A DNA stretch of 24,000 nt from a bacterium (GTDB lineage: Bacteria; Patescibacteriota; Minisyncoccia; Phycocordibacterales; UBA6899), in contig JAYTYM010000065.1 in NCBI GenBank assembly GCA_043742365.1, positions 11,909-35,908 on the forward strand. Direction: 5' to 3'. Each line of letters starts with the position of its first letter. Positions within the stretch are counted from its first letter, which is position 1. Below the pieces are notes generated by a model. It saw only the letters and a program-made list of their open reading frames with translations. It did not search any database and was not told the DNA's origin. Shown here piece after piece: positions 2,799 through 23,297 of this stretch. Both the position numbers and the translations under genes were made by a program.

Positions 2799-2805
2799 AA
2801 TATCA

Positions 2806-2914
2806 TTTTAGCAGGGACTCTCGCCTTACAGGCGCTGTACATCCTTCGTATTTCGCAGGCGAAATATACTTAGGGTCTTCGAGCCCTGCCGCAAGCTTTG
2901 CTTGCTTGGGGGCA
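2806..2914. repeat. Family-A tRNA-3'-end-linked structured module, tRNA-Lys copy
   Basis: Read on the minus strand: TGCCCCCAA (revcomp of the acceptor 3' strand), hairpin GCAAGC/GCTTGC, GCAGGGCTCGAAGAC (revcomp of the T arm), long hairpin CCTAAGTATATTTCG..CGAAATACGAAGG, ATGTAC, hairpin CGCC-TGTAA-GGCG, then GAGTCCCTGCT (a degenerate copy of the tRNA's GAGCCCTGCT). Confidence 0.6.
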
Positions 2915-2918
2915 CAGC

Positions 2919-2942
2919 AAAAAACCGCTTACGCGGTTTTTT
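2919..2942. terminator. Bidirectional hairpin terminator between the module and tRNA-Lys
   Basis: AAAAAACCGC-ttac-GCGGTTTTTT, with an A-run on one side and a T-run on the other. Confidence 0.6.
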
Positions 2943-2947
2943 CCTGA

Positions 2948-3020: not shown

Positions 3021-3057
3021 ATTTATTTCTTAATTACAATTCTTTAGACCTCTCCAG

Positions 3058-3171
3058 TTTACCCTGATACCTACCAAAACAGCATATAGCGGCATTACTT
3101 GCTCACACTAACAAATTACTGACTACTTCACTTTACCCTGATACCTACCAAAACAGCACATAGGGGTATTT
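3058..3171 (-). repeat. Two tandem 74-bp units upstream of tRNA-Lys, each a degenerate copy of the tRNA 5' part
   Basis: 3058-3097 and 3132-3171 share tttaccctgatacctaccaaaacagca(t/c)atag(c/g)gg(c/t)att. Their reverse complements (GCCGCTATATGCTGTTTTGGTAGGTATCAGGG and ACCCCTATGTGCTGTTTTGGTAGGTATCAGGG) align to the tRNA-Lys 5' end GCCCCTATAGCTCAGCTGGTAGAGCAGTAGCC. Confidence 0.55.
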
Positions 3172-3650: not shown

Positions 3651-4136
3651 ATGAAAGATACTGATGTAAAAAATATTCATGTGTTACTTCATGACATCCG
3701 CAGCGCACATAATGTCGGGTCTATGTTTCGTACTGCAGATGCAATAGGGGTAAGCAGTGTCTTCCTTTCAGGTCACACCCCATGCCCACTTGATAGATTC
3801 GGTCGTCCTGTAGCCGAGATTGCGAAGACCGCACTCGGGGCTGAGCAAAGCATAAGCTGGTCTTATGAAAAAGACCCAATTAAAGTCATAACCCAACACA
3901 AGGAATTAGGATATGCCATCGTAGGACTTGAACAAGATGAGCGAGCGGTTGACTATAAACAATTCTCCGCAACAAATAAAGTACTCTTTCTTGTAGGAAG
4001 CGAAGTGTTGGGGATTTCGAGCGAGATTAAAGAGCATTGCGACGTGCTTATCGAGATACCCATGCACGGTAAAAAAGAGTCTCTCAATGTCGCTGTTGCA
4101 TTCGGTATTGCCATGTTTCGACTTTTCGATAAATAA
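3651..4136 (+). CDS. SpoU/TrmH-family RNA 2'-O-methyltransferase
   Basis: SPOUT motifs are present: RSAHNVGSMFRTADAIG, LVGSEVLGIS and IPMHGKKESLNVAVAFGI. Confidence 0.85.
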   Translation: MKDTDVKNIHVLLHDIRSAHNVGSMFRTADAIGVSSVFLSGHTPCPLDRFGRPVAEIAKTALGAEQSISWSYEKDPIKVITQHKELGYAIVGLEQDERAVDYKQFSATNKVLFLVGSEVLGISSEIKEHCDVLIEIPMHGKKESLNVAVAFGIAMFRLFDK

Positions 4137-4305: not shown

Positions 4306-5589
4306 TCAAGCCCTTTGAGATGAAAGCAACTCCTTAAGTACTTTTCGTGCCACATCGCGGTCATCCCACGGAGTTTTCTTGCCATTCTCCTCCATAATAA
4401 AGGGATCAGTTCCTTTTCCTGTTATGAGTACAGCGGTATTTTGAGAGGCGTTCGCAAGTAGGATTGCATGAGCTATTGCATCTTTGCGGTCAACGATGAG
4501 TTGGGGTTTCTTGCTTTTCATTCCGAGCGCCATTGCTTCCATTATCTGCTTTGGGTCCTCATCGTATGGGTCCTCATTTGTAAGAATAATCTCTTTGCAG
4601 TACTCATCAGCGATACTTCCCATTACCGGCCTTTTCCACGTATCGCGGCCTCCGCCAGTGTTTCCAAGTACGCAGATCTTGTCATGATCTTTGAAAGTCT
4701 CATATACAGCGCGCAAAGAGTCTGGAGTATGCGCGTAATCGACAATTACCGGAAAATCCTGACCCTCTTCGATGCGCTCCATTCGTCCTTCTATCTGAAC
4801 AGTTTTCTCTATGCCACGCACGATCACTTCATCAGAGATATTTAAGGCTCGGGCTGCTGTGGCTGCACCGAGGATATTGTAGGCATTAAAGAGACCCGGT
4901 AGGGGCGAGCGTGCGACATGGCCTCGCCACTCTAGTGTCGTGCCATTTTCAGTTGATTCGACGGCTCCGCCATCATTTATCGCAAATGGAATCGGCGTGA
5001 TGTTGGGTAATTCAAGGAAATAGTGCGCTTTCTTGTCATCGCTATTTGCGACCATGAATCGCTTTGATTTGATTGAGCGACTGAGTGTGCGACCAATAGA
5101 AAGCTTCGCATCACGATAAGCTTCATATGAACCATGTGATTCGATATGCTCTGGTGCGAGGTTGGTGAAGATGAGCATGTCCATGTCTATGAATCGTTGC
5201 CTGAACTGTTTCGCGCCTTCTGAGGTCATCTCAAGTATTGCGTGCGTGCACTCTGCATCGACTGCGTCTCGGATAAATTTTTGTACAAAAAACCGCCCTG
5301 GAATGGTCATCTTGCGCATATTGCGAACACTCTTGTCTCCTATTTTAAAGCGTAGCGTACCTAAGACAGCAGTCTTTGCACCGCTTTCTTCTAGGATGTT
5401 GTTTAATATCTCAGTTGTGCTCGTTTTTCCTTTTGTTCCTGTGACGAGAATGACGCTAATATGTCGTGATGGAAAGCGATAACGCACTGCACCCGCAAGC
5501 GAAAGCAAAAAATGATACGTAGGTTGCAGTGATCGATATACTCGCTTTGGTATCAATGTTTCGATTTTGCGTAGGCTCCTTTCAAGCAT
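4306..5589 (-). CDS. murE: Mur ligase, MurE-like (UDP-MurNAc-tripeptide synthetase)
   Basis: ATP-binding motif VTGTKGKTST is present, along with TNLAPEHIESHG, DYAHTPDSL and TNEDPYDEDP, which are typical of MurE. I prefer the start at ATG 5589 (MLERSL); the alternative at 5634 would overlap the upstream gene. Confidence 0.75.
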   Translation of the reverse strand: MLERSLRKIETLIPKRVYRSLQPTYHFLLSLAGAVRYRFPSRHISVILVTGTKGKTSTTEILNNILEESGAKTAVLGTLRFKIGDKSVRNMRKMTIPGRFFVQKFIRDAVDAECTHAILEMTSEGAKQFRQRFIDMDMLIFTNLAPEHIESHGSYEAYRDAKLSIGRTLSRSIKSKRFMVANSDDKKAHYFLELPNITPIPFAINDGGAVESTENGTTLEWRGHVARSPLPGLFNAYNILGAATAARALNISDEVIVRGIEKTVQIEGRMERIEEGQDFPVIVDYAHTPDSLRAVYETFKDHDKICVLGNTGGGRDTWKRPVMGSIADEYCKEIILTNEDPYDEDPKQIMEAMALGMKSKKPQLIVDRKDAIAHAILLANASQNTAVLITGKGTDPFIMEENGKKTPWDDRDVARKVLKELLSSQRA

Positions 5590-5621: not shown

Positions 5622-7463
5622 TTAAGGAAGCCAATCCCAGAAGAGGGTGTAGGTGGAACTAATAGGAGCAGCAAATTGGATGGTCGAAACATTAAGATAA
5701 TACGTACGGTTCAGTTGCAGGACACAGATTCCGGGACCCCCTGCGCTGGTTGTTATCTTGATGTTTACCTGCGTCGTTCCGAGTGATCCACCGTTACCAC
5801 AGAAACCAGAGACGTTCTTTCCGGGCGAAGGAACTGTCGCTGCCCCTGAAGAAAGATCGCCAGGCATTTCACTTATTGAAGCAAGGACATCTGCGGGTAA
5901 GACAATTAAGGGACAAACAGGACCAAAGCCAAAGTCAGGACAGACAGGAGGTGGACCAGGGCAAAGCGCAAGATCAAGTGAAGCGGGAACGGGGAATTCG
6001 GGCTCGTCTCCGCCTACGATGTGGATCGCGCCGCCTCCAGTAGGGGAAGTGATCTTAAATGCGTATGAGTCGACGGTTACCGCGGTGGTTACCGCTTTGC
6101 CATTTGCGGGTCGACAAAGTGGTGGATTAGGAGGTGCTCCCAATAGTGCAGGTAATGCGTAGCAGGTCGTCGTCGCACTCGAAGTACACGCTGCCTGAAC
6201 TTCAATCGCCACCTTCTTCGTCGTGCAATTATTTGCGGGGTCGCAAACTTTCACTGACAATTGATGGAAACCGACCTTTGTAGTGTCGAGATTCATTAGC
6301 ACAGTCCTCGTCATTGCTGGAGTTGGACATGTCCCACTCGAACAGATACTTGTGGAAAAGAATATGCCGCCACCTGGGTTAAGTGTCTCTGCGCTTGCGC
6401 GATCGATGGCGAAATTATCTGTAGCGGTAAATGTAAGCGACACAACTCCCGATGTTGTTGCGAGGCCCACTACAGGCTGGGTGATGATGACAACGGGGGG
6501 AGTGATATCTGAGTCATTATCAAGAATGGTCACCACAACTGAGGGTATGCTTCCGAGTATCAAAGCGCCCGTTGGATTGAATAGGTTTACTGTAAATTGT
6601 TCATTGGGCTCAGTGATTATATCGTTAAGGATAGGCACCGTTATGGTGAGTGTTGAGACTGCAGCAGGAAACACGAGCGTTCCCGAAACCGCACCAAAGT
6701 CACTTCCTGCAATTGCAGTCCCCGACACCGTTGTGTAGTCAATGGTTCCCGCACCCAGACCCACGCGCTTGACCACAAGTACAATGCTTCCTCCACCCTC
6801 GTTCACGGAAGCAGTTGAAACGAGGAACGATACGGAAGGAATTATCACGGGGGGTACAATTGGAGGGGCAGGTGGCGGTAAAAGCGGAGTAGGAACTGGA
6901 GGGGGAAGCCCGACGGGAGGTGGGGGAGGAATGGGGATATCGACGTAGCGGCAGCAAATATCTCCGATCATGGGGGGAGGACCGGCACAAAATGCAGGCG
7001 CTACACTAGAAACGATCTTTCCAACGATAGAAGGACAAGTAGGGCCGGGTTTCCAGCTGTAGGTACCGGATGGTGGAGGAGGTGGGGTAGGAGCCCCGAC
7101 GACCGCAGGGGCCACAGAAAGTGTTGCATCATTTTTGAGCAACAAGGGGTTGATCGTGTTAAGCAAAAGCCATGAACCCACTGCAAGCAAGATGCCCAAT
7201 ATGGCATTCGTGATACATTTTTTTGCCTCACTCTTTCCTCCTGCCGAACCTGAGCCCATCAGTCGTATGCCGCAGATAACGATCATGATGACCGCAAGCA
7301 CCCCAGTAATTCCAATGAGCGTTTGAAATATTCCCTGAACATATTGCGTAAGTGTCACTGTTCCAGGAAGTGTTCCGACAGGGGCGAGGAGGTCATAGGT
7401 AGCAGGCGCTGCAAGTGCGACTGCGGGAAGAAATGATAAAAGTAAAATTGTGATCTTTCTCAT
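5622..7463 (-). CDS. Exported fusion protein: VirB2/TrbC-like pilin N-terminus, Pro-rich linkers, Calx-beta domain, Cys-rich C-terminal region
   Basis: Signal peptide MRKITILLLSFLPAVALA is followed by a two-helix hydrophobic hairpin (GIFQTLIGITGVLAVIMIVICG...NAILGILLAVGSWLLL) like T4SS pilins. PPPPP tracts follow. The Calx-beta signature is VNEGGGSIVLVVKRVG..IDYTTVSGTAIAGSDF..GTLVFPA..TLTITVPILND...EPNEQFTVNL. Confidence 0.7.
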   Translation of the reverse strand: MRKITILLLSFLPAVALAAPATYDLLAPVGTLPGTVTLTQYVQGIFQTLIGITGVLAVIMIVICGIRLMGSGSAGGKSEAKKCITNAILGILLAVGSWLLLNTINPLLLKNDATLSVAPAVVGAPTPPPPPSGTYSWKPGPTCPSIVGKIVSSVAPAFCAGPPPMIGDICCRYVDIPIPPPPPVGLPPPVPTPLLPPPAPPIVPPVIIPSVSFLVSTASVNEGGGSIVLVVKRVGLGAGTIDYTTVSGTAIAGSDFGAVSGTLVFPAAVSTLTITVPILNDIITEPNEQFTVNLFNPTGALILGSIPSVVVTILDNDSDITPPVVIITQPVVGLATTSGVVSLTFTATDNFAIDRASAETLNPGGGIFFSTSICSSGTCPTPAMTRTVLMNLDTTKVGFHQLSVKVCDPANNCTTKKVAIEVQAACTSSATTTCYALPALLGAPPNPPLCRPANGKAVTTAVTVDSYAFKITSPTGGGAIHIVGGDEPEFPVPASLDLALCPGPPPVCPDFGFGPVCPLIVLPADVLASISEMPGDLSSGAATVPSPGKNVSGFCGNGGSLGTTQVNIKITTSAGGPGICVLQLNRTYYLNVSTIQFAAPISSTYTLFWDWLP

Positions 7464-8918: not shown

Positions 8919-9080
8919 ATTATTCATACAGTATAACGGGGAAGAGGGTGAATGCAAAGATGAGAAATGTTGAGATGTGCGTAGTCGTGGAATGGGTGCG
9001 TCATAAAACGCTTTTGACCTAAGTATCCTGAACTCTTCAGTGTGGTCGATTTATAAAATCTTTAATGTCCTAATTTTGCC

Positions 9081-9300
9081 GGGGAAGCTCCATTACATGG
9101 ACGGTACACCTTTCGTATTTCGCACCACGGAGAGTACTTAAAAATTACAGTACTCGAGAGCCGTAGGCACTCGCATTCTTCAAAGTGGATTACCGCTAAG
9201 AAGAATTGGGTCGCTCGATGTCATGTTTAGTCGAAGACGAAATATATTCAAGGTTTTCGATAGGATATCTCTGCTTAAAGCAGAAGTACCTCTTTCCCAT
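9081..9300. repeat. Family-A module, distal copy at the tRNA-Arg(GCG) locus, interrupted
   Basis: 9090-9122 matches 9367-9399 with 1 mismatch in 33 nt. 9232-9261 matches 9398-9427 with 1 mismatch in 30 nt. The two halves are separated by 109 extra nt. Confidence 0.55.
9123..9231. mobile_element. 109-nt insertion in the apex of hairpin 2 of the distal module (family-B-like sequence)
   Basis: The intact paralog reads cgtatttcgaagacgaaata (9391-9410). The interrupted copy reads cgtatttcg-[109 nt]-cgaagacgaaata, with CG on both sides. The insert carries agagtactt-N8-cagtactcgag, which also occurs at 21052-21079. Confidence 0.5.
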
Positions 9301-9330
9301 TTACTAAGGATAAGAATCCTTCATAAATAT

Positions 9331-9466
9331 GGGTGAAGGGCTTCGATTCCTCGATAGGAGTATCTTCCATTACGTGGACGGTACACCTTTCGTATTTCGA
9401 AGACGAAATATACTCAAGGTTTTCGATTCCTATTCAGAAGCCGAGCAGTTGGCTTCTTCTCGGGCA
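9331..9466. repeat. Family-A module, proximal copy at the tRNA-Arg(GCG) locus
   Basis: Minus strand reads TGCCCGA, GAAGAAGCCAACTGCTCGGCTTC hairpin, ATAGGAATCGAAAACCTT, GAGTATATTTCG-tctt-CGAAATACGAAAGG, TGTAC, CCA-CGTAA-TGG, then TCCTATCGAGG (a copy of the tRNA T-stem/acceptor). Confidence 0.6.
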
Positions 9467-10277: not shown

Positions 10278-11105
10278 TTATTTCGCACCTTTCTTCTTTT
10301 TGCCACTGCCGGGCTGGTCCTTTTGGCCGCCGTTGCCTTTGGAGGGTTGGGCGGCGAGGCGCTGCGCGCGGTTGTTTTCACGCTTGGCTTCACGCTTGGC
10401 ACGGTCGACGGAAGAAGTCGGACTTTTCGCTTCGCCTGCTCGCGAGGAGTCGTCGATGGCACCGCCACGCACGAGGATCTCGGCGCCAGACTTCTGGTGG
10501 AAGTAGACGGCATCACGGCCGTTCTTCGCATTGCAGAAGTACTCACAACCCATCTCTTCGAGGAGGATCACCTTCGCTTCGAGGTTGATGTCCTCGCGGC
10601 GCAGATGACCCAGGGCAGTCGACACGACGTCTTGAATGTAGCCGACGCGCAGGCGTTCCTTGTGGGCAACCTCCTCTTCCGTCTGAGCGCGCTCTTCGTT
10701 GCGGCGCTCTTCTTCGCGCAGGCGGTCTTCCTCGAGGCCGCGAGTGAGCACGTCCGCGGGGATCGCGATTGCGATCGGACGCGGGGTGCTGCCCTTGCGG
10801 ACCTTGAAGGAGTTCACCAGCTTCAGGCCTTGCTCATCTGGGAGTTGCGTGATGCAACCGACGAGCGAGACGTTCTGGGTCAGCCTCTCATCCGCTTGAA
10901 GCTTTAGCGTGGCTGCCTTTTCGGCTGCACGCTTGGCTTTGTTGGCGGCCTTGCGCTCCGCATGTGCTGCCAGGTTCGCAGCGGCCTGTTCCTCGGAAAC
11001 GGTCACGAGGCTGAGGTTCGCCTGGGCGAAGGGGGCGTGGCGGAAATTCGCCAGTTCTTGTTGGTTCGAAGAAGAGTTCTGACCAAATTGCGGGGCGGTG
11101 ACCAT
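10278..11105 (-). CDS. GC-rich orphan protein with a Lys/Arg/Glu-rich coiled-coil centre and a basic tail; no recognisable family
   Basis: Long ORF with abrupt GC elevation: I counted 39 G+C in the 60 nt at 10321-10380, against 27/60 at 9721-9780. I prefer the ATG at 11105, which is preceded by GGAG about 8 nt upstream; GTG 11162 is the alternative. Shadow ORFs lie on the opposite strand, as expected for high GC. Confidence 0.6.
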   Translation of the reverse strand: MVTAPQFGQNSSSNQQELANFRHAPFAQANLSLVTVSEEQAAANLAAHAERKAANKAKRAAEKAATLKLQADERLTQNVSLVGCITQLPDEQGLKLVNSFKVRKGSTPRPIAIAIPADVLTRGLEEDRLREEERRNEERAQTEEEVAHKERLRVGYIQDVVSTALGHLRREDINLEAKVILLEEMGCEYFCNAKNGRDAVYFHQKSGAEILVRGGAIDDSSRAGEAKSPTSSVDRAKREAKRENNRAQRLAAQPSKGNGGQKDQPGSGKKKKGAK

Positions 11106-15232: not shown

Positions 15233-15240
15233 GTTTTCGG

Positions 15241-15378
15241 GTGGGCGATAGAGGATATTCGACCCCTACTGGGTCAGTACACCTTTGCCATTTTTTCAGA
15301 TTAGGAAATCTTCAAAAATAAGGCAGAAGGTTTTCGAATCCTCTAGCGAAAGCCACGCAGGTGGCTTTCTTCGCCCAC
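15241..15378. repeat. Family-A module, tRNA-Val copy (best preserved)
   Basis: 15241-15256 gtgggcgatagaggat is identical to 15408-15423. Minus strand reads GTGGGCG, GAAAGCCAC-ctgc-GTGGCTTTC, TAGAGGATTCGAAAA, CCTTCTGCC...GGCAAAGG, TGTAC, GACCC-agta-GGGGTC, GAATATCCTCTATCGCCCAC. Confidence 0.7.
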
Positions 15379-15408
15379 GACAAAGGCCACCTGACGGTGG
15401 CCTTCTTG
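15379..15408. terminator. Hairpin terminator between the module and tRNA-Val
   Basis: AAGGCCACC-tgac-GGTGGCCTT (15383-15404). Confidence 0.6.
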
Positions 15409-15725: not shown

Positions 15726-15733
15726 TCAAGAGT

Positions 15734-15762
15734 AAAAAAAATCTGCCCTGCGGCAGATTTTT
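15734..15762 (+). terminator. Intrinsic terminator after tRNA-Arg(UCU)
   Basis: An A-run, then ATCTGCC-ctgc-GGCAGAT, then TTTTT. Confidence 0.7.
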
Positions 15763-15780
15763 AGCTTGATCCGGCCGGAG

Positions 15781-15905
15781 TGATGTTGCGAGTCCTCGAG
15801 AAACCACGAGGCGAGGTCACGAGCACTTAACAGAATTCAAGCGCAGCGAAGAATTATGTTTAGTGACTTGGGGCACTATGCGAAGTTCAATGCCAAGGTA
15901 TCATG
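15781..15905. repeat. Family-B repeat copy downstream of tRNA-Arg(UCU)
   Basis: ggtcacgagcactta / gcgcagcgaa / ttagtgacttg / ggcactatgcgaa / ccaaggt parallel ggtcgcaagtactta / gcgaagcgaa / ttagtaacttg / ggcactttcgcga / ccttggt at 20595-20682, in the same order. Confidence 0.45.
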
Positions 15906-15948
15906 CATCGGTCCTGAGCTGTGGTAGTAGGATATTATTATGATGATT

Positions 15949-19748: not shown

Positions 19749-19848
19749 TCCTTAATTTTGAGGGATAAAAGGAAATATTCGCATTTTCTTGCAAAATGAA
19801 AGGGGGTATGTTAGATTTCGGTCTACATTCAATACAAGTGAAAACCCT

Positions 19849-20301
19849 ATGAATACGACACTACACAGCATGATCAAACTTTCTCCAGTCAATATGGAGG
19901 CACGCCAGAAACTTGAGTTTCGTGCGGGTGACACGGTGCGCGTATGGGTGAAGGTCCTCGAAGATGCAGAAAAGAAGAAGTATCGCCTTCAGGCATTCGA
20001 AGGGCTCGTACTTGCTCGCAAGCATGGCTCAGAACCAGGCGCTACTATCACTGTACGCAAGGTTGCAAGTGGTGTCGGGGTTGAGCGTGTATTTCCTTTG
20101 TATTCCCCAATGATCGACAAGATAGAGCTGGTAAAGCGTTCGATGGTTCGCCGCGCCAAACTCTACTATGTCCGCGAGAAAGCAGTCCGCGATGTCCGCC
20201 GCAAGATGAAACAGACGCGCATGGGTGGAGGTTCCACAAAAGATTTCGAAGAAACTCACGTTCCAGTCGTTTCCGAAGATGAGACAAAAACCGAAGCATA
20301 A
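19849..20301 (+). CDS. rplS: 50S ribosomal protein L19 with an acidic C-terminal extension
   Basis: [81 protein letters not shown]. The start is uncertain (19849, 19870 or 19789). Confidence 0.88.
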
Positions 20302-20394
20302 ACCAAACGATCCGCTACCAAGGCGGGTCTTTTGTTTAACACGCATTACCACTTGATACTTATACAAATATTGTCTATAGTAGGTGACACACAA

Positions 20395-20478
20395 GCCCAG
20401 GTGGCGAAATTGGTAGACGCACTACCTTGAGGTGGTAGCGCCCGCAAGGGCATGGAGGTTCAAGTCCTCTCTTGGGCA
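20395..20478 (+). tRNA. tRNA-Leu (anticodon GAG), long variable arm
   Basis: Acceptor GCCCAGG/CTTGGGC, anticodon arm CTACC-TTGAGGT-GGTAG, variable arm CGCCCGCAAGGGCAT, T arm GGAGGTTCAAGTCCTCT. Confidence 0.92.
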
Positions 20479-20525
20479 CAATATGACCGCACAAATGCAA
20501 AGCATTTGTGCGGTTTCATATTGTA
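20479..20525. terminator. Long palindromic hairpin after tRNA-Leu(GAG)
   Basis: caatatgaccgcacaaatgc-aaa-gcatttgtgcggtttcatattg, with a small bulge. The palindrome continues outward into the tRNA 3' end and its inverted copy at 20526-20548. Confidence 0.65.
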
Positions 20526-21121
20526 GCCCAAGAGAGGACTTGAAAGACGGAGGCGGTCTACGATTTCGCTTTGCGAAATTGTCGCCGAGTCGGGGTCGCA
20601 AGTACTTATGAGCGAAGCGAATTAGTAACTTGTGACCAAGTCCTCTACAGGCACTTTCGCGAGAGGACTTGAAAACCTTGGTGCGACCAAATTTTTCTTT
20701 GATGTCCTCATCTTAGAAAAATTGAAGTACTCTTGTGGTGATGTTTTGGCTTTGCAAAACCACCAAGGTGTACCGTCCCCGTAGGGGAAAAGTCCTAACT
20801 TGAAAGACGGAGCCTATGTTTCGCCAGCGACCAAAAACTCTTGAGCGTAGCGATTAGAGATTTGAAGTACTCCTGTGGTGCATGCGAAACCGCGAGCGAC
20901 ATTATTTGCTTATGAGCTAGCGAATTTAGCAAATAAGACGTGCCTGTGGCGCGGGGTCGCAGAAATTTCTGAGCGACCAAAAGTATGCGACCAGAGTGAG
21001 ATAAAATTGGAAGCACTCTTTGTGGTGTGGCGACAAAAAAATATCACTACAAGAGTACTTCCAAATTTCAGTACTCGAGGACACGATGAAGTTTTAGGTC
21101 GCTGTGACAAAGTCCTCCACA
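20526..21121. repeat. Series of three tRNA-Leu(GAG)-linked modules (families A and B), each ending in a copy of the T-arm 3' half
   Basis: AAGTCCT(C/A) occurs at 20462 (the tRNA), 20638, 20790 and 21110. The inverted tRNA end tagcccaagagaggacttgaa is at 20526. The 15-mer acttgaaagacggag is at 20538 and 20798. gcgaccaaa..ttgaagtactcYtgtggtg recurs with a period of about 145 bp. Confidence 0.6.
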
Positions 21122-21145
21122 AAAAAAGACCCGCATCGCGGGTCT
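21120..21145 (-). terminator. Intrinsic terminator of the gam-like gene
   Basis: AGACCCGC-atc-GCGGGTCT. On the minus strand it is followed by TTTTTTT. Confidence 0.7.
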
Positions 21146-21149
21146 ATAA

Positions 21150-21671
21150 CTATTCACTGACTACAGTTACAAATTCAACTGCCGTCTTTGGTTCCACAAA
21201 GAACTTTTCTGTTTGTGTATAGCGAACTCCTTGAATCTGCGGCTTTTCTTTTAATAGCGCTTCTTTGTCGATGGATTCTATGTTGCGGATATATTTCGTC
21301 AGCTCAAGACTCTTGAGAATGTCTAGGATCTTTTCATCGCCGCCACGTCCGGCAGTCACCTTAGGCGGAGTCAGTCTCCACCCGAATATCCCCGAAGAAA
21401 GAGTGACTGTTTTCTTGTCGGCAGCAAGTAATTCTTGCCGATGCTTCACTGCGAATAGTTTGATATTCACTACATGATTTGCAGTTTGTGCCTGAAGTGG
21501 TTTTATCGCCGCATCTGCTTCTTGGCGCAATGTCGCAACTTTTTCTGCAAGTTCGCGTTCGATAGTTTCGGTTGAGCGTACCAGAATACCCACAATGTGT
21601 AGGACGCCATTTGCCTCATCGATGTTTTGTATAGGATGAATAGGGGTCGATTTTTTTGCTCGGCTCATCAT
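21150..21671 (-). CDS. gam: Phage Mu Gam-like host-nuclease inhibitor (DNA-end-binding) protein
   Basis: 173 aa. The segment GIFGWRLTPPKVTAGRGGDEKILDILKSLELTKYIRNIESIDKEALLKEKP parallels Mu Gam GDVSWRVRPPSVSIRGMDAVMETLERLGLQRFIRTKQEINKEAILLEP (recalled from memory). The N-terminal half is coiled-coil. Confidence 0.8.
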   Translation of the reverse strand: MMSRAKKSTPIHPIQNIDEANGVLHIVGILVRSTETIERELAEKVATLRQEADAAIKPLQAQTANHVVNIKLFAVKHRQELLAADKKTVTLSSGIFGWRLTPPKVTAGRGGDEKILDILKSLELTKYIRNIESIDKEALLKEKPQIQGVRYTQTEKFFVEPKTAVEFVTVVSE

Positions 21672-21811: not shown

Positions 21812-22834
21812 ATGGAAACGAACATCGTCTCTCTGCCGCACATCACGCAATACCACGCTTCGATCCAGAATCCACACTTTGACGTTGATCTCGTTACAAC
21901 GAACATTTTTGAAAAGCACGGGCAAGTGATAATGATCGATCCAAGGCGGGTGCAGCCGCTGTCTGATCAGCCTCGCCAAAGCTCGAACCCCGGATTCAGT
22001 CTCGAGTCGATTGCCGCACTTTCGATGTGTATTAGTGCTGAAGGCCAGATCGAACCGGCACTCATTGCTCCGCCGACCAAGTCGGGGTGGGACGCAGCTC
22101 TCGTTGATGGCGAACGCAGGCATCGCGCGTGCCTGCATGGCAACATGATGCTTATGGCGCGCGTTGACTTGAGCATCACGAACCCAGAAGAGCACTTCGT
22201 GAAATCAGTGATGGCCAATTTCCACAGGGAAGGCCATACGTGCATCGAGATCATGTATGCGGTTAAGCGTATGCAGACAACTCGCACGAGAGAGCAGATC
22301 GCTACCGTCTTTGGTCGCTCTGTGCAATGGGTGGATCTACATATCTCGCTCATGCGACTCGACGAAGCGCTACACCCATTTCTTGTCGATCAAGAAGTAG
22401 AGCAAGAGGGTGATGGCACAGGCGAGCAAGTCGAAATCAAAAAGCGAGGTCGCAAGCAAACGGGTAAGCTGACATTTCAGCTCGCTCTTGTTATTTCTGG
22501 TTTGCCCAAAAGCGATCAGATGAATGTCGCCAAGGAGGTGCTTGGTAAACGAATGCCCTACGATGTAGCCCGCAGATACGTATTGCGCTATATCGACGAC
22601 AACGGCATTGTTACGAAATATTCGAAGCGTTCGCCGAGCGAGTCATTTCAGTCGCTTGAAAAAGCGGCTGGTACCGCTGAAAATAAATTTGGTGTTTTCA
22701 TCGACAAGAATCCGCGCACACTTCGTGAACTTTTTGATACTCAGTCCCCGATGGACCGTAGATTGCTTGCAGAAAAGCTCCGACTTCTAAGTGTAGATAT
22801 TTCGTCACTTGCGGATATCCTGTCACCTCAGTGA
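21812..22834 (+). CDS. ParB/Sulfiredoxin N-terminal domain protein with HTH (ParB/KorB-like); no ParA partner
   Basis: A ParB box is present (ALVDGERRHRAC). An HTH-like segment follows (TREQIATVFGRSVQWVDLHISLMRL). Length is 340 aa. It is transcribed divergently from gam. Confidence 0.75.
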   Translation: METNIVSLPHITQYHASIQNPHFDVDLVTTNIFEKHGQVIMIDPRRVQPLSDQPRQSSNPGFSLESIAALSMCISAEGQIEPALIAPPTKSGWDAALVDGERRHRACLHGNMMLMARVDLSITNPEEHFVKSVMANFHREGHTCIEIMYAVKRMQTTRTREQIATVFGRSVQWVDLHISLMRLDEALHPFLVDQEVEQEGDGTGEQVEIKKRGRKQTGKLTFQLALVISGLPKSDQMNVAKEVLGKRMPYDVARRYVLRYIDDNGIVTKYSKRSPSESFQSLEKAAGTAENKFGVFIDKNPRTLRELFDTQSPMDRRLLAEKLRLLSVDISSLADILSPQ

Positions 22835-22909: not shown

Positions 22910-22991
22910 TGGGCGTGGGGAGACTCGAACTCCCAACCCTTACGGGATACGCTTCTGAGACGTACGCGTATACCAATTCCGCCACACGCCC
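22910..22991 (-). tRNA. tRNA-Leu (anticodon CAG), long variable arm
   Basis: Reverse complement: acceptor GGGCGTG/CACGCCC, anticodon arm TACGT-CTCAGAA-GCGTA, variable arm TCCCGTAAGGGTT, T arm GGGAGTTCGAGTCTCCC. Confidence 0.92.
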
Positions 22992-22993
22992 AC

Positions 22994-23297
22994 TCACCAC
23001 ACAAACTTTCTATACTCCGCTCCTGAGACGTACGCGACTATATTCTTTTGCAATTCCCCCACACGCCCACTCACCACACAAACTTTCTATACTCCGCTCC
23101 TGAGACGTACGCGACCATATTTATTTGCAGTTCCTCCTCACACTCACTGCACAAGTTCTCTATGATTACGTTTATTAGACGTAAGCGACTATATTCTTTT
23201 GCAATTTCACCACAAACCCAGATGTTCCAATAACATTTATGCTTCGATTCTAAGGCGTACGAGACCTCATTCTTTGGCAGTTCCCCCTTCTAGTCAC
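22994..23297 (-). repeat. Tandem array (4 units, 74-77 bp) of degenerating copies of the tRNA-Leu(CAG) upstream spacer plus 5' two-thirds
   Basis: Units start at 23023, 23100, 23174 and 23250, and each resembles 22955-22993 of the real gene. The 29-nt spacer tcaccacacaaactttctatactccgctc is identical at 22994 and 23071. Similarity decays with distance from the gene. Confidence 0.75.

Follow-up and report, generated by a model that had tools for sequence, protein, structure and literature searches.

A candidate accretion array of miniature integrative modules at the 3′ end of a tRNA-Leu gene in the Candidate Phyla Radiation

The region that follows the tRNA-Leu(GAG) gene (20479-21121) was analyzed in a 24-kb stretch of a bacterial chromosome, which is called the window here and whose positions are used throughout. 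We read this region, with a probability of about 0.6, as an accretion array of miniature, non-autonomous integrative modules at the tRNA gene's 3′ end, with smaller elements nested in them. The modules belong to two families, type A and type C, and, judging from the composition of related loci, a large serine recombinase acting in trans probably mobilizes them. An earlier reading of the same DNA from its letters alone (the sequence-only reading) had proposed serial tRNA-Leu-derived units laid down by successive insertion. This proposal was borne out: copies of the tRNA end bound the units, relatives differ in the units they carry, and filled and empty sites were found at the tRNA-Val and tRNA-Ser genes.

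The ribosomal protein L19 encoded in the window is nearest to those of Parcubacteria/Paceibacteria near Candidatus Lloydbacteria; a search for proteins identical to the L19 and Gam proteins of the window gave no match. The syntenic relatives used for comparison, given with their L19 identity, were the loci L131 and L132 (98%), L133 (96%), L002 (94%), L004 (93%), and L007, L008 and L010 (87%).

Anatomy of the tRNA-Leu(GAG) array

Across 20480-21121, a type-C module (unit 1), a type-A module (unit 2) and an expanded type-C module (unit 3) follow one another, with a core, i.e., a copy of the tRNA end, before the first, between successive units and after the last, and a terminator behind the last core. 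Every unit has an inverted copy of the tRNA-Leu(GAG) 3′ end at its start and a direct copy at its close, and the direct repeats besides the tRNA itself lie at 20637-20653, 20790-20802 and 21109-21121. The features are as follows.

20353..20381, + strand: promoter-like site of tRNA-Leu(GAG), TTGATA-17-TATAGT, the sole promoter-like site in 20250-21250
20395..20479, + strand: tRNA-Leu(GAG), whose part from T-loop to discriminator (~20459-20478) is the core copied in the array
20479..20525, + strand: terminator-like palindrome with 13-bp stems (20486-20498 / 20502-20514)
20526..20653, + strand: unit 1, type-C module with invariant blocks common to L085, L095, L047 and L131
20654..20802, + strand: unit 2, type-A module matched by covariance model R1, with an uninterrupted homologue in L004
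20798..21121, + strand: unit 3, expanded type-C module that aligns with type C after removal of its three copies of the family-B element
21127..21145: G+C-rich terminator hairpin that lies between the last tRNA-end copy of the array and the convergent Gam-like gene (21150-21671, - strand) and is shared with the latter

The uninterrupted inverted tRNA end that had been noticed past the palindrome was found as a perfect 19-nt copy (20526-20544) of 20459-20477, on the far side of the ~48-nt palindrome, and the tRNA end, the palindrome and the inverted copy together form a near-perfect hairpin of ~88 nt. In unit 1, this inverted copy is followed by GAAAGACGGAG, a hairpin and GAGTCGGGGTCGC (with GGGGTCGC at 20592-20599), then come a second hairpin, its apex being GCGAAGC, and GTGAC (20632-20636); CAAGTCCTCTACAGGCA (20637-20653) is the direct copy that closes the unit. 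Unit 2 starts with the remnant of a hairpin termed P0, half of which is lost, and the inverted T-arm GAGAGGACTTGAAAA (20661-20675). Its body consists of the hairpin P2, CCTTGGTG...CACCAAGG (20676-20768), then TGTAC (20769-20773) and the hairpin P3, TCCCC-GTA-GGGGA (20776-20788), and it closes with the direct copy AAGTCCTAACTTG (20790-20802). All elements of the grammar described earlier for this middle unit are present, and R1 matches both of its halves, the 3′ half (20744-20800) at E=2.7e-6 and the 5′ half (20661-20700) at E=0.2. Unit 3 contains ACTTGAAAGACGGAG, inner hairpins homologous to positions 8216-8310 of L004, and GGGGTCGC (20953-20960), and closes with GTGAC (21104-21108) and the direct copy AAAGTCCTCCACA (21109-21121). 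The array ends at the terminator of the Gam-like gene, as the sequence-only reading had stated, the hairpin 21127-21145 being common to both.

The motif AAGTCCT, which had been proposed to close each unit, is present there at 20638, 20790 and 21110. In all, it occurs on the + strand at 20462, 20638, 20790 and 21110, and its complement at 20535 and 20664. Six of the eight matches to the motif or its complement in the window lie inside 660 nt; 3.2 are expected per 24 kb, and none of 100 shuffles reached eight. The array also folds much more stably than shuffled sequences, with z=-13.0 for the + strand and z=-10.6 for the - strand.

The period of about 145 bp that had been suggested for the region was not supported. 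Tandem Repeats Finder at a score of >=30 found no head-to-tail tandem repeat in 20479-21121, and the spacings of 140-146 nt are those of the family-B copies, between which the spacers are unrelated. The family-B consensus is CGACCWAAA...GGAAGTACTCYTGTRGTG. The array contains three direct copies, GCGACCAAA ... GAAGTACTCYTGTGGTG, beginning at ~20683, 20827 and 20973, and one inverted copy.

20684..20740, + strand: family-B insertion 1, 57 nt, CGACCAAA...GAAGTACTCTTGTGGTG, in P2 of unit 2
20828..20880, + strand: family-B insertion 2, 53 nt
20974..21027, + strand: family-B insertion 3, 54 nt, more diverged
21045..21101, - strand: family-B insertion 4, 57 nt, inverted; its pairing with copies 1 and 3 underlies the long-range inverted repeats

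The three direct copies had been listed correctly by the sequence-only reading, but the inverted copy (21045-21101) had been overlooked. They are not superimposed on the modules as a period; they are independent nested insertions, absent in L004 and placed elsewhere in L131. Namely, the P2 of L004 that is homologous to that of unit 2 reads CCTTGGTG-ATGTTTTGTCAGCAAAAC-CACCAAGG, without the 57-nt segment. What had been described as a 93-nt hairpin in the middle unit is indeed closed by CCTTGGTG...CACCAAGG, but it is actually a hairpin of ~36 nt, intact in L004, plus the 57-nt insertion. In L131, the 98% relative, a family-B copy occupies another site (3679-3733) and splits the apex GAGCGAAGCGAA, which is intact in unit 1 of the window. 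In L068 (Saccharibacteria), a module is interrupted at ~6079-6133 by a copy with almost identical ends. These comparisons suggest that family B represents a distinct mobile element of very small size that is widely distributed in the Candidate Phyla Radiation (CPR). Across the loci, its targets are module hairpins or the distal tRNA copy. The 15-mer ACTTGAAAGACGGAG had also been assigned to family B; it is repeated at 20538 and 20798 as reported, but it belongs to the start of type-C modules.

Family B resembles miniature inverted-repeat transposable elements (MITEs), repetitive extragenic palindromic (REP) and REPIN elements with their REP-associated tyrosine transposases (RAYTs), and IS200/IS605-derived palindromes in being tiny (~55 nt) and non-coding and in having conserved ends. 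Further likenesses are the presence/absence polymorphism, the MITE-like trait seen here as the lack of the copy in L004 and the other site in L131, the occurrence in both orientations with paired copies forming hairpins, and the presence of Y1 transposases in the 96% relative L133. It differs from such elements in that neither terminal inverted repeats nor a target-site duplication were evident by inspection and no enzyme is linked to it. In L133 (3180-4000, 4860-5400), a RAYT-like Y1 transposase gene lies between two copies of the palindrome ATTTGTCAAGGTTnAACCTTGACAAAT; the same locus has an IS200-type transposase in a LAGLIDADG-type open reading frame (ORF) between rplS and the expected tRNA-Leu, an ordinary insertion. 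A RAYT/REP link of family B was rejected because the palindrome flanking the RAYT-like gene differs and is absent from the window and all the other loci.

Module families behind tRNA genes and their insertion

The general grammar of a module is a core copy (T-stem 3′ strand, acceptor 3′ strand and discriminator), a short flank, a terminator-like hairpin, an inverted copy of the tRNA 3′ end, a conserved Y-shaped body of type A or C and the next core. The type-A grammar was found behind five of the seven tRNA genes of the window. Read in the sense of the tRNA, it begins with the terminator-like hairpin, the complement of the acceptor 3′ strand, the P0 hairpin and the complement of the T-stem 3′ strand and T-loop, which ends in GAAAA; then come P2 (usually CCUU...AAGG), UGUAC with two bases, a 5-bp P3 with a GTA loop, and the direct copy of the tRNA 3′ end. 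Besides unit 2, the window has the following modules.

9080..9434, - strand: three type-A modules behind tRNA-Arg(GCG) (9434-9353, 9352-9258, 9258-9080)
15236..15407, - strand: single type-A module behind tRNA-Val(TAC), R1 71 bits, a 167-bp insert relative to the empty site of L004
11476..11683, + strand: type-A-like module behind tRNA-Ser(TGA) with two further tRNA-end copies, R1 E=2e-6
2800..2945, - strand: single type-A module behind tRNA-Lys(TTT), R1 59 bits

The covariance model R1 was built from 28 type-A modules. In the window, it also picked up modules that had not been used for training, namely the one behind tRNA-Ser at E=2e-6, unit 2 of the Leu array (3′ half) at E=2.7e-6, and two more of the Arg modules. 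A pattern scan of one genome per species gave ~40 type-A modules, all in CPR/Patescibacteria (Saccharibacteria, Paceibacterota, Kaiserbacteria and Zambryskibacteria) and mostly 23-90 nt past a same-strand tRNA. It should be noted that the first genome scan was too loose, with ~500 chance matches expected and most of its 120 loci being noise, and that the true modules were isolated by requiring the P3 hairpin. R1 had 47 matches at E<=1e-3 in 41 CPR genome loci. A tighter scan of metagenomes yielded 120 further loci, in which 130 type-A modules were counted by regular expression; 89 of them lie within 130 nt downstream of a same-strand tRNA, with at least 13 tRNA identities represented. In all, more than 170 CPR/Patescibacteria loci have type A, for the most part at a distance of 20-130 nt past the tRNA. 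The orientation of type A is always that of the tRNA. Double compensatory changes were seen in 16 of the 17 modelled pairs, and the covariation score was 0.47, compared with 0.11 for shuffled alignments (0/500 reached 0.47) and <=0.08 for the slid-partner controls.

Type C is defined by the invariant blocks GAAAG-CGGAG, GGGGTCGC and TGTGAC, and it was also found behind tRNA-Glu (L085), tRNA-Met (L095) and others. Both families are thus conserved, and both occur widely behind tRNA genes of CPR/Patescibacteria. In Rfam, only tRNAs reached the threshold, the rest being hairpin-type noise such as miRNA models at permissive thresholds; there was no relevant match at E<=10 for 20300-21300 or at E<=1 for the clean modules of L063, L130 and L077. 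No description of type-A or type-C modules was found in the full texts covered, which do not include subscription journals and leave novelty unproven; both families appear to be undescribed.

Several observations concern other tRNA genes. The tRNA-Arg(GCG) gene is followed by a perfect 27+27-nt palindrome, and the third module of its array has a family-B-like insertion of ~100-130 nt in P2. Behind tRNA-Arg(TCT), a conserved non-coding stretch was found (15726-15948; also in L001, and in L004 at 4606-4850, where it is duplicated). Its opening palindrome embraces the tRNA flank, and it belongs to neither type A nor type C and may represent a third module family.

The insertion of the modules is seen where a filled site can be compared with an empty one. 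At tRNA-Val, the window is filled with the 167-bp insert and L004 is empty. The post-discriminator base and the terminator orthologous to those of L004 lie beyond the distal copy, and the flank proximal to the tRNA is new, with a terminator different from the original one. At tRNA-Ser, there are three copies, and the most distal one carries the flank of the empty L004 site. Compared across these sites, the sequences show that the modules are insertions and not local repeats. The Val and Ser patterns further show that an insert re-supplies the tRNA 3′ end together with a terminator and displaces the old end distally; from the polarity inferred at these two genes, new units appear to enter on the tRNA-proximal side. 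The same principle is documented for tycheposons, in which each later integration moves its predecessors further from the tRNA and partial tRNAs stay behind (bioRxiv 10.1101/2020.12.28.424599).

At tRNA-Leu(GAG), L007 has no unit, L002 has one of type A, L004 has A and another unit, L131 has A then C, and the window has C, A and C′. Judged by such loci, a fast turnover of units between close relatives is shown. Of the tRNAs in two sets of loci, 36 of 100 (first set) and 67 of 167 (second set), i.e., ~36-40%, have copies of their own 3′ end downstream.

The candidate recombinase, the inverted copy and competing readings

In the accretion reading, recombination would take place within the core, and a site-specific recombinase encoded elsewhere would catalyze it in trans. 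Among the enzymes considered, a large serine recombinase is the best candidate. A relative has a full-length element with such a gene on its tRNA side and a type-A module at the opposite end. This element was found in two samples (L217 and L218). Directly behind tRNA-Ser(GCT) lies the gene of a 560-aa large serine recombinase (reverse); past ~3 kb of cargo come a type-A module (75.6 bits) and then the tRNA end again, copied perfectly. A type-C module is found 2.6 kb beyond, together with a third tRNA-end copy. Homologous serine recombinases abut tRNA-Asn in L223 and, in L234, the last core copy after two tandem mini-modules. With four members, two of which had entered by homology and not by the position criterion, the large serine recombinase was the most recurrent family among 83 ORFs beside tRNA ends or last core copies. 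No recurring tyrosine integrase was found among these 83 ORFs or among 114 ORFs near modules. The window modules would be deletion derivatives of, or hitch-hikers on, such recombinase-bearing elements.

Genes between successive cores were also found in other CPR loci, namely those for ClpP-like and HD-domain proteins in L124, a Fic protein in L208 and a phosphoribosyltransferase-like protein in L150. The tRNA-Glu cargo islands of three genomes, L077 (4465-4580, 5400-5520), L085 (4840-4870) and L045, have a conserved segment in common, GTTTCTAATCCCTAAAGGCAGTATT ... GATTCCAATTnnnACTAnnTAGGGTCA, an unusual version of the tRNA-Glu end that is interrupted; the terminator and the type-A module come directly after it.

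Several points weigh against the accretion reading with a serine recombinase. No recombinase was found in the 24-kb window or in the units themselves, so that these can be at most non-autonomous members of integrative elements, and none recurs among the 114 ORFs within 2.5 kb of modules in the genome loci. Serine recombinases were seen in just four distinct loci of ~160, and the combination of recombinase, type-A module and perfect direct repeat is complete in L217/L218 only; in L223, the module is 7.5 kb off and its distal copy mismatches the acceptor part of tRNA-Asn. Excised or circular forms were not observed in the locus sequences. A pattern scan of IMG/VR viral contigs gave ten chance or unrelated matches and no module; with this result, and with blastn against phage records matching the tRNAs alone, a phage origin was rejected. 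Moreover, large serine recombinases use duplex sites of ~40-50 bp, and they neither need nor explain an inverted target copy of ~20 nt or a covarying Y-shaped body. The integrase model likewise leaves unaccounted for that one body, with matching inverted and direct copies, serves at least 13 tRNAs, and the fidelity of the inverted copy to its target points to a role in pairing.

This fidelity was measured against the two possible partners. The inverted copy was closer to the T-loop and T-stem 3′ strand of the tRNA itself than to the direct copy of the module in 20 of 24 cases and the reverse was seen in none, the summed edit distances being 16 (tRNA) and 62 (direct copy). Direct copies are systematically interrupted at one place, either by a bulge of 1-2 nt or by an inserted mini-hairpin. 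The element thus contains a sequence that complements its target faithfully, which points to a role in target pairing; a plain duplex integrase model neither predicts this role nor requires such a complement. A primer-binding site of the retroelement type, or pairing with mature tRNA, was rejected since the inverted copies extend into the complement of the genomic flank (e.g., CAATA / TATTG) and not into TGG, i.e., they do not pair with CCA. The inverted copy and the Y-junction may be what the recombinase, or else an accessory factor, recognizes.

These features allow a bolder view, which we hold to be rather unlikely, that the modules belong to an undescribed tRNA-anchored cassette system of the CPR, whose units each end in a folded Y-shaped DNA site with a stem exactly complementary to the 3′ end of the target tRNA; the site would find its target in a guide-like manner, by this complementarity and not through a fixed sequence bound by a protein. 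Recognition by complementarity would explain how one conserved body serves at least 13 tRNAs. The enzyme might be the serine recombinase of the few loci or another, single-strand-specific one, and the units would be non-coding or carry one to few genes.

Whether the helices of the modules are formed by DNA or by RNA bears on two further alternatives. G·U pairs make up 1.7% of the pairs in module helices (12, next to 10 A·C) and 6.1% in the tRNA stems of the same loci (Fisher p=1e-6). Loops of 3 nt account for 57% of the hairpin loops. The P3 hairpin takes the form T-GTA-A in 41 of 47 modules, and GCGAAGC forms the apex of some P2 hairpins; like GNA triloops, this motif is a classic among stable mini-hairpins of DNA. 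In 32 of 41 modules (p=1e-5), folding is more favourable for the sense than for the antisense strand, with a mean advantage of only 2.5 kcal/mol. No promoter-like site was found inside the array, and a terminator follows the tRNA. The nearly pure Watson-Crick helices, the 3-nt loops, the almost equal folding of the two strands and the promoter-free array suggest palindromes at the DNA level rather than a selected RNA, a reading with which transcription is compatible. Covariation of the stems is expected for a folded DNA site just as for an RNA.

The first of these alternatives, also improbable in our estimate, takes the modules for folded single-strand DNA recombination sites in the style of integron attC or CTX-phage attP. 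On one strand, the inverted copy would pair with the core and so offer the end of the tRNA gene as an intramolecular duplex on a Y-shaped scaffold, a tyrosine recombinase or HUH/Y1 nuclease would exchange one strand with the tRNA gene, and replication would complete the insertion, giving integron-like cassette arrays with tRNA genes as their anchors. The stems that covary while their sequence is free, the Watson-Crick-only helices with many 3-nt loops, the T-GTA-A P3 (41/47) and the GCGAAGC apices fit such sites, as do the faithful complement of the target tRNA, the single-gene cargoes between successive modules, the enzyme not being encoded in cis, as in integron cassettes, and the Y1/HUH transposases of the 96% relative L133. 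However, no IntI-type integrase was found in the window or recurring near modules, the attC core motifs (RYYYAAC / GTTRRRY) were not seen in alignments inspected by eye, and the sole recombinase found repeatedly beside tRNA ends is of the duplex-acting serine type. Both strands fold almost equally (2.5 kcal/mol mean difference), and these data give no direct sign of a single-stranded intermediate.

The second alternative, which we place below the single-strand one, is that the modules are structured RNAs, co-transcribed with the tRNA or read through from it, whose closing helix imitates the acceptor/T-arm. Such RNAs might act in RNase P/Z processing, sequester the displaced partial tRNA or bind a tRNA 3′ half. 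The constant orientation with the tRNA, the conserved three-way junction with its covarying stems and invariant single-stranded GAAAA and UGUAC, the better folding of the sense strand (32/41, p=1e-5), the tandem G·A-type motifs at P2 apices and one G·U in L007 that is valid in the tRNA sense only all agree with it. Yet, in contrast to the tRNA stems of the same loci, the module helices contain few G·U pairs, which A·C pairs balance; a good terminator stands between tRNA and module, the array is promoter-free, and Rfam gave no match. The modules also tolerate 55-nt insertions and truncation (half of P0 is lost in unit 2), and their presence, number and order vary among near-identical relatives, unlike those of a needed RNA gene.

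A local origin without any mobile element, by template-switching at the terminator palindrome and slippage copying the tRNA end both ways, is very unlikely. The tRNA end, flank, terminator and inverted copy do form near-perfect palindromes that include the genomic flank, and in L063 the direct repeat extends over 45 nt, with the terminator as a part of it; but a body of ~70 nt (GAAAA-P2-UGUAC-P3) is conserved from Paceibacteria to Saccharibacteria behind at least 13 tRNAs, the terminator imported at tRNA-Val differs from the original, and cargo genes and a recombinase lie between cores. That the region encodes a small protein can be practically dismissed: the ORFs (20795-21016, - strand; 20875-21222, + strand; 20910-21122, - strand) exist mechanically, but none has a Pfam match, one crosses the terminator into Gam antisense, and the 98% relative L131 lacks most of the stretch.

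Surroundings of the array and comparison with known systems

Besides seven tRNA genes, the window contains the housekeeping genes rplS (19789-20301), uppS, rluA, pilM, ruvA, ruvX and adk and a Mur ligase gene. The Gam (21150-21671) and ParB-like (21812-22834) genes lie distal to the last core, and in L131 Gam adjoins the array as well. The sequence-only reading had seen this cassette as sitting in the place of the next cargo. No further copy of either tRNA-Leu end was found beyond Gam/ParB, and no such end bounds the cassette distally; with entry on the tRNA-proximal side, distal material would be older, not next. The idea of cargo accretion did hold in outline, as stretches between successive tRNA-end copies contain cargo genes elsewhere in CPR genomes. 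Between the convergent tRNA-Leu(GAG) and tRNA-Leu(CAG) genes lies a hotspot whose content varies among the relatives: the window has Gam and the ParB-like gene, L002 (3716-5456) ParB and a 189-aa gene, L004 (8445-8648) a helix-turn-helix gene, and L007 203 bp (10765-10967) with nothing but one module. The suggested co-occurrence of ParB-like genes with the modules is not general, there being no recurrence among neighbouring ORFs. ParB and Gam were rejected as the machinery of the modules, as they are absent from the module-bearing L004 and L007 and do not recur near modules.

Repeats were also seen upstream of tRNA genes. About four tandem 77-nt units precede tRNA-Leu(CAG) (- strand) at 22974-23296 and are also found in L004 (8890-9010); each consists of the first ~18 nt of the tRNA with upstream sequence, so that the 5′ end and promoter region of this tRNA are serially duplicated, which mirrors the 3′-end arrays. 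Upstream of tRNA-Lys(TTT), two 50-nt repeats of 86% identity lie 74 nt apart (3047-3170) and may be duplicated promoter regions. A free-standing LAGLIDADG-like ORF between rplS and tRNA-Leu(GAG) was found in L002 (2691-3362) and not in the window.

Among the known systems, SCC (staphylococcal cassette chromosome) and pseudo-SCC islands occupy the 3′ end of staphylococcal rlmH (orfX) and are moved by Ccr large serine recombinases. They would share with the modules large serine recombinases, the 3′ end of a conserved gene as the target, direct repeats of ~15 nt, and tandem arrays with recombinase-less units between the same repeats. Unlike SCC, the modules have many tRNA targets with matched element lineages, miniature non-coding units, a structured body with an inverted target copy, and a link to the recombinase that comes from few loci. 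Integron attC cassettes and CTX attP are similar in having recombinase-less units at a fixed site, an imperfect hairpin whose pairing is conserved, and single-gene cargoes. They differ in that no IntI-type integrase lies beside the array, the stems here are the sequence of the target tRNA itself, and the branched tip is conserved here and variable in attC; direct signs of a single-stranded intermediate were not seen for the modules.

Tandem arrays of integrative and conjugative (ICE), integrative and mobilizable (IME) and cis-mobilizable (CIME) elements represent a comparable serial accretion at tRNA genes. The tycheposons of Prochlorococcus (bioRxiv 10.1101/2020.12.28.424599) share with the modules the entry in the 3′ part of the tRNA, partial tRNA copies between elements, the displacement of earlier arrivals by later ones, recombinase-less units moved in trans, and cargo between att copies. 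In contrast to tycheposons and CIMEs, the commonest unit here is gene-free and of ~130-170 bp, and it has an inverted tRNA-end copy and a covarying Y-shaped body, neither of which is described for them. The enzyme associated here is a large serine recombinase in place of a tyrosine recombinase.

For annotators, these data are a warning that such stretches are neither genes nor simple repeats. The tRNA-end arrays also account for assembly breaks at tRNA loci, e.g., in L001. The contig of this locus, whose L19 is identical over the aligned part, ends at 4971, ~120 bp past rplS. This end lies upstream of the position of the Leu array and is consistent with such repeats breaking short-read assemblies.

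The genomes of CPR/Patescibacteria are tiny, and little is known of the mobile elements in them. Behind ~36-40% of the sampled tRNA genes, copies of the own 3′ end mark insertions of the two module families. The cargo found between cores (Fic, ClpP-like, HD-domain and phosphoribosyltransferase-like proteins and the recombinase) offers a handle on gene gain and loss in the CPR. If the inverted tRNA copy does serve target recognition, the modules would be a natural example of re-targetable site-specific insertion.

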